This document shows positions 11,062 through 13,912 of a DNA stretch of 29,283 nucleotides, in pieces. The DNA comes from Candidatus Pacearchaeota archaeon. Lineage in GTDB: Archaea > Nanobdellota > Nanobdellia > Pacearchaeales > GW2011-AR1. Location: NCBI GenBank assembly GCA_017608985.1, contig JAFCEV010000001.1, forward strand, positions 1 to 29,283. The letters run 5' to 3'. The stretch's first letter is position 1. Every line of letters begins with the position of its first letter. The translations under genes were made by a program, and so were the position numbers. The notes beneath the pieces were generated by a model, which did not search any database, had not been told where the DNA came from, and saw only the letters and a program-made list of their open reading frames with translations.

Positions 11062-11074
11062 TTTTTAGTGTAAC
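11058..11074. repeat. 17-bp direct repeat, copy 1 (TTGATTTTTAGTGTAAC)
   Basis: Identical to 13098-13114. Confidence 0.9.
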
Positions 11075-11096
11075 TCTTTCTCTATCAAATTTAAAA

Positions 11097-11627
11097 TTAA
11101 GTTTGCTCATTTTTTAATATTAAAAAAATTAAATTGTGTTTGTGTGGAGGAACATTTGGGTGTTCTTCTATTTCTGTTTCATCCTGCAATTCTTTTTCAA
11201 CTTTCCATCCAGGATAAAAAGATAGAATTTCTTCCTTTGTTGGAAAAAATTTTCCTTCATTTTTCATGCTATCTTTCTCAGACATACAAATGATAAAATT
11301 ATATCCTCTTTTTGAGGTAGCTTTTTTAATTTTTTCAAATAATTTATGGACTTTGTCTTTATTGAAAAAATGCAAAATCAAAGAAGCAATTATTAAATCG
11401 TTATCCCTTCCAAAGTCTTCTTTAACTACATTTCCCAATACAAATTCAAAATTGTCTGGTTTTTCTGATAGCAATTCTTTAACATCAATCCCTTTTGTTT
11501 TGATTCCTTTTTTGCTAAAAAATAAAGACATTAAACCTTTTCCGCATCCCAAATCCAAAACTTTCTTCAGTTTCTTATCTTGAAAGAAATTCAAAAATTC
11601 CTTTTTAGTTTGTTTTACGTTTATCAT
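11097..11627 (-). CDS. Class I SAM-dependent methyltransferase (TehB-like size)
   Basis: Motif I VLDLGCGKG, DLIIASLILHF; overlaps the radical SAM gene by 23 nt. Confidence 0.85.
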   Translation of the reverse strand: MINVKQTKKEFLNFFQDKKLKKVLDLGCGKGLMSLFFSKKGIKTKGIDVKELLSEKPDNFEFVLGNVVKEDFGRDNDLIIASLILHFFNKDKVHKLFEKIKKATSKRGYNFIICMSEKDSMKNEGKFFPTKEEILSFYPGWKVEKELQDETEIEEHPNVPPHKHNLIFLILKNEQT

Positions 11628-12675
11628 TTTCTAAATATTCTTTAAAACACATTGGGTCTTTTGCCATATAATCTCCAGTTGTTGCATAGGCAATCGCCCT
11701 ACACCCTCTACAATGAACAACTTTATCACATAAAGACTTTTCTCTTATTTTATTTAAATCTCTTAAATCTTGCATAACCTCATTCTCTAAAACTAAATTT
11801 CTAAATCCTTCTTTAATATTTCCGATAGAAATTGGAAGTCTTCTGCAAGGATAGACTGTTCCATCAGAAAGAACAGAAAGCATCCTGAATCCTGCAGAAC
11901 ATCCGCATAAATAAGTATTATTCTCTTTTGATTTTTTAATTAAATCATTTTCTCCATCCTGAAAAATTTGCCACAAAACATCTGATTGTAATACTGTTAT
12001 TTTTCCTTTATATCTTTCTACTAAATTGTTTGTCTTTTTTAACATTTCATAAACTTCAAAAGAATTAACAAATTTGGGGTCTTTTGTGCCTAATTTTGGA
12101 TCCGGGACATAGGTTTTGAACCCAACCTTTTTAGCACCTGCAATATAAGAATTTTCTATTACATCTTCAAATTCATCCATATTTTGTTTCATTAAAGTCA
12201 TTGCAGAAACAACAGAGATTCCTTCCCTTGATGCATTATTTATTCCTTCCATTGCTTTGTCATAAGCAAACTCTCTTCCTCTTATTTTATTATGGGTTTC
12301 CTTTGTTCCATCAATAGAAATTTGAATTGTGTCTATTCCTCTTTCTTTTATTTGTTTTGCTTTTTTTGGATTAATTAAGGTCCCATTTGTTAACAAATTT
12401 GTAATAACTTCTTGTTTTTGAGTATAATCAAAAATGTTTAGATGATCTCTTCTCATTAAAGGTTCTCCTCCAGAAATTGCAATCCTTGGAATCATATCCC
12501 ATCGTTTTGCAGTTTCTTTTAAATCATCTATCATAGAAAAAACATCTTCTAAACTCATAAGCTCTTTAAATTGTTGATGATTAGAATTTCCTTCAGAATT
12601 ATGATAACAATGAGAACACCTTAAATTACAACTATCTGTTGAGTCCCACTGTAAGTAAAGATGTCTTCTTGCCAT
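11605..12675 (-). CDS. Radical SAM enzyme with C-terminal SPASM-type domain, no N-terminal RRE
   Basis: CNLRCSHC (CxxxCxxC), ISGGEPL, LLTNGT, QISIDG..HNKIRG; C-terminal CSAG...DGTVYPC...C....CRGCRAIAY...GD....DPMC. Confidence 0.92.
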   Translation of the reverse strand: MARRHLYLQWDSTDSCNLRCSHCYHNSEGNSNHQQFKELMSLEDVFSMIDDLKETAKRWDMIPRIAISGGEPLMRRDHLNIFDYTQKQEVITNLLTNGTLINPKKAKQIKERGIDTIQISIDGTKETHNKIRGREFAYDKAMEGINNASREGISVVSAMTLMKQNMDEFEDVIENSYIAGAKKVGFKTYVPDPKLGTKDPKFVNSFEVYEMLKKTNNLVERYKGKITVLQSDVLWQIFQDGENDLIKKSKENNTYLCGCSAGFRMLSVLSDGTVYPCRRLPISIGNIKEGFRNLVLENEVMQDLRDLNKIREKSLCDKVVHCRGCRAIAYATTGDYMAKDPMCFKEYLENDKRKTN

Positions 12676-12690
12676 TTTTTAAGAATAAAT

Positions 12691-12912
12691 TTAATCTAAA
12701 AAACAACCATCATCAGAGTAACAAGCATCAGGACCGCAAGCGTCACAAGGATCACAGTGATACTTGTCTTTAAAAAGATTGTACTTTTTTACCTCGTCCC
12801 TTGGACCATGCTCTCTTACCTGATAAGGTAATTGAGTGATACAATTCAAAAAATCTACTTCCTTCGCTGTTAGCTCAAATTCATTTGATTTTTCCATAAT
12901 TTTTAAGAGCAT
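12691..12912 (-). CDS. Putative RiPP precursor peptide with Cys/Asp-rich C-terminal core; likely start ATG 12897
   Basis: Ends HCDPCDACGPDACYSDDGCFLD (5 Cys and 6 Asp in the last 21 aa); 15 nt upstream of and co-oriented with the rSAM gene. Confidence 0.65.
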   Translation of the reverse strand: MLLKIMEKSNEFELTAKEVDFLNCITQLPYQVREHGPRDEVKKYNLFKDKYHCDPCDACGPDACYSDDGCFLD

Positions 12913-13097: not shown

Positions 13098-13114
13098 TTG
13101 ATTTTTAGTGTAAC
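13098..13114. repeat. 17-bp direct repeat, copy 2 (TTGATTTTTAGTGTAAC)
   Basis: Identical to 11058-11074; offset 2040 bp. Confidence 0.9.
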
Positions 13115-13276: not shown

Positions 13277-13912
13277 ATGAATAGAAGAAAATTTTTAAAA
13301 TATTTAGGATCAGGATTAGTAGCCACAGCAATCGCACCAATGGAAGTTTTGGCAAGAATCCCAGATAAATCTCTAGAAGATAAGTTATTTCCATTATACA
13401 AACAAGTAACTGATAATTTCGGAGTAGAGGATGAAGGAGTAATTCTTGTTGATGGTCAAAATCAAAGACTATATTTAGTAGATGGATACAATGGATTTAG
13501 AGTCAATAAGGAATACGATATTTCAACTGGAAAAGCTGGATTTGGAAATAAATCGGGAAGTGGCAAGACTCCAACAGGAATTCATAGAATAAAAGAAATG
13601 TATGGTAGTAATGCACCTATTGGGACTCTTTTTATAGCACGACAAAATACAGGTAGAATTGCAAAAATACACACAGACGAATATGATTCCCCTAATGATT
13701 TGATAACCAGCAGAATAATGTGGTTGGATGGCTGCGAAAAACAAAACAAAAATAGCCATTCAAGATATATCTATATTCATGGAACTTCTGAAGAAGGATT
13801 AATAGGCAAACCTGCTTCACACGGTTGTATCAGAATGAAAAATAGAGATGTAATTGAGCTATACAATCTAGTAGGTTCAGGAACTTATATTAATATAAAG
13901 AATAATTTATAA
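13277..13912 (+). CDS. L,D-transpeptidase (YkuD/ErfK) family protein with twin-arginine signal
   Basis: MNRRKFLK Tat motif; YDISTGKAG, GKTPTG, IYIHGT...PASHGCIRM catalytic His/Cys motif. Confidence 0.9.
   Translation: MNRRKFLKYLGSGLVATAIAPMEVLARIPDKSLEDKLFPLYKQVTDNFGVEDEGVILVDGQNQRLYLVDGYNGFRVNKEYDISTGKAGFGNKSGSGKTPTGIHRIKEMYGSNAPIGTLFIARQNTGRIAKIHTDEYDSPNDLITSRIMWLDGCEKQNKNSHSRYIYIHGTSEEGLIGKPASHGCIRMKNRDVIELYNLVGSGTYINIKNNL

Follow-up and report, generated by a model that had tools for sequence, protein, structure and literature searches.

On the minus strand of a contig from a Candidatus Pacearchaeota archaeon (JAFCEV010000001.1), three adjacent genes encode a small Cys-rich peptide, a radical S-adenosylmethionine (rSAM)/SPASM enzyme and a TehB-like methyltransferase (MTase). 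The 29,283 nucleotides of DNA analysed here, referred to as the window, make up an entire contig. The assembly to which it belongs comprises 50 contigs and 476 kb and has a completeness of 85.7%; the window rSAM/SPASM enzyme is the only copy found in this genome. The initial annotation had spoken of a reduced-genome archaeon, which is correct for this DPANN lineage and assembly size. We conclude that the genes belong to an uncharacterised rSAM/SPASM family, real and conserved in DPANN archaea, that resembles the systems producing peptides that are synthesized ribosomally and modified post-translationally (RiPPs). No description of this DPANN cassette family was found in the searchable literature. 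The features that define the cassette are as follows.

12691..12897, minus strand: precursor-like peptide gene, 68 aa plus stop, assigned from the open reading frame (ORF) list, homologue starts and selection
12912..12691, minus strand: longer peptide ORF of 73 aa from an upstream ATG, with the alternative start at 12912
12757..12897, minus strand: leader-like part, residues 1-47, carrying the motif E13-x-x-F16-L17-x-x-I20
12694..12756, minus strand: core, residues 48-68, CDPCDACGPDACYSDDGCFLD, with C48 nearly invariant, C51 and C54 invariant and G55 conserved
11605..12675, minus strand: radical SAM/SPASM enzyme, 356 aa (PF04055, PF13186, PF13353)
11097..11627, minus strand: TehB-like class-I SAM-dependent methyltransferase, 176 aa (PF03848, TehB structure match)

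The tight packing and common orientation of the three genes, first pointed out in the initial annotation, are evident in the ORF list of the window, wherein the peptide stop lies 15 nt from the rSAM start and the rSAM and MTase genes overlap by 23 nt. To place this arrangement in context, we collected loci from one-genome-per-species contigs, a class-level genome sample and metagenomes. The resulting family set comprises 52 non-redundant enzymes that are 44-92% identical to the window rSAM, whose nearest relatives are from Candidatus Pacearchaeota and Woesearchaeota metagenome-assembled genomes (MAGs). A reading frame encoding CxxCxxC is present within 330 nt upstream of the rSAM start in 48 of the 50 loci that have enough upstream sequence, while 83 of 1040 random 360-nt segments were positive in the same control. 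Directly downstream of the rSAM gene, a TehB-like MTase is encoded in 41 of 47 family loci, and one further locus (L188) carries a diverged MTase. The three genes are a conserved family cassette and not a chance cluster of ORFs. Its distribution is patchy: it occurs in 10 of 401 sampled genomes of the class, among them 7 of the 76 from the family to which the window belongs and 2 of the 17 from another family. Such behaviour is that of an accessory system and not of a core cofactor pathway.

The four close homologues of the window peptide are 67-68 aa long and start at the second ATG (MEK..., window position 12897). The window product is therefore likely to have 68 residues, of which 47 form the leader and 21 the core, and with this start the previously proposed leader of ~47 aa is borne out. 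The core contains 5 Cys and 6 Asp among its 21 residues and includes one ACGP. Its sequence had been reported accurately, together with two CX3D motifs (CDPCD, CYSDD) and three CX2D motifs (CGPD, CYSD, CFLD), although several such motifs are expected from this composition alone. Pfam yields no match for the window peptide, and no NCBIfam model matches any of the 35 unique peptides that make up our family alignment.

Within this alignment, the leader motif E-x-x-[F/Y/L]-L-x-S-M is common to all core types, and its Glu (E13 in the window) is nearly invariant. In the CxxCxxC motif, the last two Cys never vary and the first occurs in at least 90% of the sequences; a Gly usually follows, and the remaining tail is variable. 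Thus, CxxCxxC(G) is the only core feature conserved across the whole family, whereas CX3D and CX2D are conserved only within the core type found in the window. This type (A) reads CDPCD[A/G]CG..., and the others are C-V-S-G-C-x-x-C-x-S-C-G-G-N-D (B), C-x-x-C-N-x-C-G-S-G-[D/N]-C-x-x-C-C...D-D (C) and C-N-T-C-x-Q-C-P-G-C-G-C-M-C-N-N-D (D). The sole semi-conserved feature resembling a cross-link acceptor is an Asp or Asn that is often, though not always, found 3-4 residues past the third Cys. A profile search of 1.84 billion protein representatives returned 48 clusters, all of 49-90 aa, among whose representatives 46 carry CxxCxxC, 41 carry CxxCxxCG and 23 end in Asp.

The ratios of nonsynonymous to synonymous substitution rates (dN/dS) between the window and an 85-92% identical relative (L001) are 0.13 for the peptide, 0.06 for the rSAM enzyme and 0.17 for the MTase. 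Judged by comparative sequence analysis, the small Cys-rich ORF is a real gene and all three genes are under purifying selection. The generic hallmarks of a RiPP precursor and its maturase are present, namely a short enzyme-adjacent gene with a conserved leader and a variable C-terminal core. In a few loci the peptide gene is irregular. At L003:1540-2040, L017:3500-4000 and L178:2000-2500, the first two of which are separate MAGs, a +1/-1 frame change separates the leader from the core, and at L022:1000-1500 the gene lacks an ATG start. These cases could reflect homopolymer assembly error, pseudogenisation or recoding.

The rSAM enzyme scores 96.7 bits on PF04055 (cut-off 29.5) and 32.8 bits on PF13186 (cut-off 21.5), and it also matches Fer4_12 (PF13353). 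Its cluster-binding CX3CX2C motif (C16, C20 and C23) is invariant in the family alignment. Because this motif begins at residue 16 and Pfam reveals only the rSAM, SPASM and Fer4_12 domains, there is no N-terminal RiPP recognition element (RRE), in agreement with the earlier description of an enzyme without a fused RRE. The best NCBIfam match is TIGR04340, the ACGX rSAM model, with 190 bits against a cut-off of 400. Lower scores, all below the respective cut-offs, were obtained for AhbD (174 bits) and NirJ2 (167 bits), each with a cut-off of 500, for WgkB (114), ScmE (113) and MftC (98), for SbtM (TIGR04082; 109 bits versus 350, covering the C-terminal 317 of 516 model positions), for PapB (NF047865; 93.7 bits versus 340) and for StsB, SkfB and CcpM (76-80 bits). 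The solved sequences closest to the family profile are CteB (5wgg; E 1.7e-24, a full-length alignment over residues 14-331) and SkfB (E 2.5e-24). The Tes structure 7tol matches the rSAM core alone (residues 6-179).

In a maximum-likelihood tree, the DPANN family forms one clade (support 100/99) on a long branch, apart both from a peptide-less, MTase-less group that is 31-34% identical and from an ACGX-like pair. One supported rSAM clade corresponds to each of the core types A, B and D (99/98, 100/96 and 100/98, respectively). The initial annotation had proposed an archaeal RiPP-like system, and had held that this would be in doubt if homologues of the rSAM enzyme lacked adjacent Cys-rich peptides or grouped with cofactor enzymes. 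Such peptides accompany the enzyme in the 48 of 50 loci noted above, and the family is separate from its peptide-less AhbD/NirJ-like relatives in the tree, which supports the proposal.

The sister group (L194-L228; for example, L198:2480-3538 and L206:2477-3526) shares the CRGCRAIAYA and DPQCF signatures and retains an intact CX2CX5CX2C, with no adjacent Cys-rich peptide and no MTase. On the NirJ2, AhbD and ACGX models its members reach ~165-195 bits, which is under each of the cut-offs.

The SPASM domain of the window enzyme contains C259, C277, C316, C322, C325 and C343, which represent six of the seven Cys of the CX9-15GX4C...CX2CX5CX3C...C motif and are all invariant. The first Cys of the CX2C is absent (EKSLC). 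Alignment to CteB places this Cys on a non-Cys family position, and a family-wide Cys count agrees, such that the loss recorded in the initial annotation is correct. Of 51 family sequences, 38 lack this Cys, eight have an adjacent 'CC' in its place and four keep it. The four keepers of the CxxC are basal members (type D and L186), and the Cys is also kept in 33 of 33 outgroup sequences, the ACGX enzyme included, which indicates that the loss is derived within the family. The structures of CteB and anSME provide the basis for mapping the ligands of the second auxiliary cluster (Aux II), and by analogy to these enzymes the loss would leave Aux II with three Cys ligands. With regard to Aux I, 45 of 49 sequences have no Cys within eight residues upstream of the first SPASM Cys, and CteB likewise has no conserved extra Cys.

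The MTase scores 50.8 bits on PF03848 (TehB; cut-off 20.4) and matches additional class-I MTase domains, and its closest solved structure is TehB 2xva (E 2.5e-9). On the NCBIfam TehB equivalogs, however, it reaches only 49-68 bits versus cut-offs of 218-303. By these matches the protein has a TehB-like fold, yet it is not a TehB orthologue. We know of no TehB-like methyltransferase in a RiPP pathway.

Co-folding of the rSAM enzyme with the peptide gave an interface score (ipSAE) of 0.89 in three runs, as compared to 0.01-0.02 for three controls. In the complex model, the peptide residues in confident contacts are 6-27, which include the leader motif, and 54-59, which include the third Cys and its Gly. 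On the enzyme, the corresponding residues are 1-7, 57-59, 187, 231, 245-264, 292-297, 305 and 320. These predictions support binding of the peptide by the rSAM enzyme via the leader.

Comparison with known systems identifies relatives but no match. ACGX is the best-scoring curated family, and to our knowledge this system is functionally uncharacterised. A reference ACGX locus was found by its back-translated repeat pattern, with an Oscillospiraceae locus (L039) being the one useful locus among at least 120 matching stretches; its rSAM enzyme scores 605 bits on TIGR04340 and its peptide 85 bits on TIGR04341. As in the window, an RRE-less rSAM/SPASM enzyme of ~350 aa is encoded directly downstream of a small Cys/Gly-containing peptide, and both enzymes carry the C-terminal signatures CRGC... 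and DPxC. In contrast, the two rSAM enzymes are only 29% identical, and the window core is CxxCxxC(G) instead of a series of tandem ACGX repeats with CX3C spacing. The CX2CX5CX2C, whose first Cys is missing from the window clade, is intact in the ACGX enzyme. The neighbours of L039 are nitroreductase- and ferredoxin-like, and a TehB-like MTase is not among them. Neither the window peptide nor any of the 35 family peptides matches TIGR04341, even at E<=1. Given the rSAM score of 190 versus 400 bits, the missing TIGR04341 match and the different motif, we reject ACGX membership.

The window cassette also resembles CteB-SCIFF, PapB-freyrasin, SkfB and CrpC-CrpA, in each of which an rSAM/SPASM enzyme acts on a Cys-rich C-terminal core behind a leader. 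It differs from these ranthi- and sactipeptide systems in that the enzyme has no N-terminal RRE, the clade lacks one more SPASM Cys ligand (of Aux II by the CteB mapping) and the cassette includes an obligatory-looking TehB-like MTase. We do not assign the window enzyme to the PapB-type ranthipeptide maturases, because its score is 93.7 versus 340 bits, the RRE is absent and CX3D is not conserved in the family. The Cys-to-Asp reading for which the initial annotation had invoked ranthipeptides is at most possible, as the CX3D and CX2D motifs behind it are conserved in one core type alone; the ACGX model lies nearer than that of PapB. SbtM, a relative of the ACGX enzymes, is likewise an rSAM/SPASM enzyme whose target is Cys within a peptide that bears a leader; it has been shown to make thiooxazole from Cys (PMC11002830). 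No selenocysteine or selenocysteine insertion sequence (SECIS) context was seen at the window cassette. A groundwater metagenome locus (L224:2200-3583) encodes a peptide of 78 aa with a long run of Gly, Ser and Cys at its end (CGGC, CGSSCGSGCSGC...). The rSAM enzyme beside it, with 291 bits on TIGR04340 versus 213 bits on SbtM, is thus intermediate between ACGX and SbtM.

Two cofactor or lipid functions were also considered. AhbD and NirJ are similar to the window enzyme in size and architecture and yield the second- and third-best hidden Markov model scores, and some homologues of the window rSAM are automatically named 'AdoMet-dependent heme synthase'. In contrast to these enzymes, the family enzyme has a Cys-rich peptide as its partner and in most cases an MTase as well, and it forms a clade separate from the peptide-less relatives. 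Searches of the 85.7%-complete genome for hemB and hemC (PF00490, TIGR00212) found neither, with controls detected in 11 of 14 cases. We reject the heme/d1 reading on the basis of the scores (174 and 167 versus 500 bits), this missing hemB and hemC and the tree. Archaeal rSAM/SPASM enzymes acting on lipids exist and occur in some DPANN, and among these the Gms proteins are at least 400 aa long with a COG4001 domain (PMC11214058). A role as Gms (the glycerol monoalkyl glycerol tetraether, or GMGT, synthase) is rejected as well, since the window enzyme has 356 aa and no extra Pfam domain.

Downstream of the MTase gene, family loci differ. A protein of ~222 aa with an HExxH motif follows the MTase in 12 of the 41 loci whose downstream sequence extends for at least 1300 nt, or in 13 of 52 loci by flanking-ORF clustering, and is restricted to the type-A clade. 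Its place is taken by an APH/EcKL-like kinase in 15 loci, which belong to the type-B clade in the examples examined, and six of the kinase-bearing loci additionally encode a DUF3419/methyltransferase-like protein. Type-B loci such as L006:5584-7189 and L007:5584-6318 have Ser/Thr-rich cores. No recurrent transporter is present in the flanks of the 52 family loci. In the window, the HExxH gene persists as a remnant next to one of two repeats.

11075..11110, minus strand: remnant of the HExxH zincin-like gene, its first 12 codons, MSKLNFKFDRER, identified by translation and homology to L001
11058..11074: 17-bp direct repeat copy 1, GTTACACTAAAAATCAA on the minus strand, at the HExxH truncation point
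13098..13114: 17-bp direct repeat copy 2, ~200 nt upstream of the peptide gene

The HExxH proteins of type-A relatives have an invariant H137-E138-x-x-H141 (motif GHELxH) and an invariant E166, and in L001 the gene follows the MTase with a 14-nt overlap. An AlphaFold2 model of this protein (predicted local distance difference test score, pLDDT, of 92) matches zincin-like clusters of the AlphaFold DB, including DUF45, IrrE/ImmA and DUF4932, with E 4e-11 to 5e-3. Foldseek matches to the PDB are weak (E >= 0.1) and include M1/M4 peptidases and the lanthipeptide peptidase EryP, and Pfam gives a sub-threshold SprT-like match. On the strength of this model, the protein is probably a zincin-like candidate leader peptidase.

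Homology between the window and the L001 HExxH gene ends at 11064, with divergence starting at repeat copy 1. The two exact copies of the 17-bp direct repeat bracket the cassette at a start-to-start distance of 2040 bp, and 0 of 100 shuffles gave two copies. Copy 1 overlaps the stop codon of a convergent 87-aa ORF and resembles the native HExxH sequence of L001 at ~10 of its first 13 positions. This arrangement suggests truncation or relocation of the cassette, possibly via recombination at short homology. An empty site for the repeat was sought in 80 genomes of the same family by way of the adjacent gene for an L,D-transpeptidase-like protein, and none was found. A search of the 85.7%-complete genome with this HExxH query gave no homologue at another position. 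The initial annotation had stated that the cassette encodes neither protease nor exporter. This holds for the window, but the loss of the protease is secondary, since relatives encode the HExxH protein after the MTase and the window is without it because the gene of its closest relatives is cut to 12 codons here.

We consider it probable that the cassette is a DPANN system for the post-translational maturation of a small peptide, present here without its peptidase. Direct support comes from the conserved gene order, the leader/core architecture, the co-diversification of core type and enzyme clade, purifying selection and the predicted binding. The peptide would be made with a leader of ~47 aa and a Cys-rich C-terminal core of ~21 aa. 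The leader motif E-x-x-F-L-x-x-I/M may dock on the SPASM/N-terminal face of the RRE-less rSAM enzyme, which would then apply 5'-deoxyadenosyl radical chemistry to the CxxCxxC(G) core. The likeliest outcome, to which we assign slightly less than an even chance overall, would be intramolecular Cys-sulfur-to-carbon thioether cross-links of the sacti or ranthi type. A Cys-to-Asp thioether, for which QhpD is a precedent beside PapB, is by analogy one possible and plausible sub-case. In an archaeal example, the rSAM/SPASM enzyme CrpC installs ranthionine on the Cys-rich substrate CrpA at C-x-x-Q/D motifs (PMC13692751). The translationally coupled TehB-like MTase might subsequently methylate the product, plausibly at a free thiol or carboxylate. 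In related cassettes the HExxH protein would probably remove the leader, its gene having been lost here.

We know of no DPANN radical-SAM peptide system with a characterised product. The family is a compact target of two to four genes that offers a new precursor family with a leader motif and a CxxCxxC(G) core, an RRE-less enzyme that, as modelled, apparently reads the leader directly, and a derived SPASM variant without a cluster ligand. That the cassette is kept under purifying selection in genomes of ~0.5 Mb suggests a role worth its cost; metal handling or dealings with a host are speculative candidates for this role. Large-scale archaeal mining counts only generic 'ranthipeptide/sactipeptide' clusters in DPANN (PMC12144867).

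Several observations weigh against a peptide maturation system. An ipSAE of 0.89 was reached by 58 of 80 solved complexes and by 2 of 110 mismatched pairs, yet this calibration is only rough because our co-folding used custom rSAM and peptide alignments, and within the modelled complex the fold of the peptide itself is uncertain (pLDDT ~50). The rSAM enzyme falls under every curated cut-off, with its AhbD and NirJ scores (174 and 167 bits) near that for ACGX (190 bits). Clustering of core types in the tree overstates independence, because kin share core-type labels; the match between core type and clade, as read from these sequences, is evidence of clustering and not of independent co-evolution. 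The core types have no conserved acceptor residue in common, and the thioether topology is therefore not predictable. The invariant CxxCxxC is equally expected of a plain metal- or Fe-S-binding peptide, and the window holds no exporter, immunity gene or intact protease. Finally, all of the chemistry is inferred, which applies to the modification of the peptide as such and to its type, to the residue that would accept a methyl group and also to the biological role.

The same RiPP-like system might use other Cys chemistry, forming heterocycles such as thiooxazoles (SbtM-like, -4 Da per Cys) or another non-crosslink product that yields a metal-binding peptide, with the TehB-like enzyme S-methylating an exocyclic sulfur. 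TehB-type enzymes methylate chalcogen centres, and the MTase matches the TehB Pfam family. The Cys-Gly after the third Cys is conserved (41 of 48 representatives), and SbtM, the maker of a thiooxazole from Cys (PMC11002830), is the second-best NCBIfam model for the true ACGX rSAM enzyme (157 bits for L039; the L224 enzyme reaches 213 bits). The window enzyme, however, reaches only 109 bits on SbtM, below its AhbD, NirJ, WgkB and ScmE scores, the closest solved sequences are thioether synthases, and any heterocycle is purely hypothetical. We regard this chemistry as unlikely. A related proposal, by analogy to the cluster ligands of CteB, begins from the observation that neither auxiliary cluster has a fourth conserved Cys ligand: the substrate CxxCxxC triad might complete the coordination of both during catalysis, giving an S-methylated Cys-derived peptide of a new class that is neither a classic sactionine nor a ranthionine and is kept by the ultra-small cells, with no exporter, as a metal-handling or host-interaction factor. 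This we hold to be quite unlikely.

The small protein could also be an unmodified metal- or Fe-S-binding partner, such as an electron donor, chaperone or sulfur carrier, of an rSAM enzyme acting on a cofactor, tetrapyrrole or lipid. A CxxCxxC with a fourth nearby Cys does resemble cluster- and metal-binding motifs, and the AhbD and NirJ2 scores (174 and 167 bits), the 'AdoMet-dependent heme synthase' names of homologues and the archaeal rSAM/SPASM lipid enzymes found in some DPANN (PMC11214058) point the same way. Yet those scores are far under the 500-bit cut-offs and hemB and hemC were not found, and Gms proteins, with at least 400 aa and COG4001 (PMC11214058), differ from a 356-aa rSAM/SPASM/Fer4_12 enzyme. 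An N-terminal motif joined to a Cys-rich tail that changes with the enzyme clade is not expected of a redox partner, the confident contacts are predicted mainly with the leader, and the nearest peptide-less rSAM relatives are also without an MTase. A binding partner is thus very unlikely in our view. As for the possibility that the cassette is a relic in this genome, moved by illegitimate recombination with its peptidase cut off and giving no mature product, just 12 codons are left of the HExxH gene, which breaks off precisely at a copy of the 17-bp repeat that brackets the cassette, no second HExxH copy was found in the genome, and relatives with a truncated rSAM (L014, L016) or frameshifted peptide genes (L003, L017, L178) exist. 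However, the three genes are intact, with dN/dS of 0.06-0.17 relative to an 85-92% identical relative, and the genome is only 85.7% complete. Moreover, most loci (types B, C and D) never had an HExxH gene yet keep the peptide, rSAM and MTase, so that the core system does not depend on the peptidase. We give very little credence to a relic, and maturation of the peptide remains the reading that we prefer.

The divergent neighbour of the cassette (window positions 13277-13912) encodes a 211-aa L,D-transpeptidase-like protein; among 80 other genomes of this family, none yielded a homologue at E<=1e-20. A search of sequencing runs returned no RNA run, and the DNA runs that it did return contain no more than 10% of the sampled words. 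At one type-A locus (L004:306-1187, and L158 at the same position), a 293-aa protein with 26 Cys arranged in repeated C-x-x-x-D/E-rich modules is encoded directly upstream of the peptide gene.

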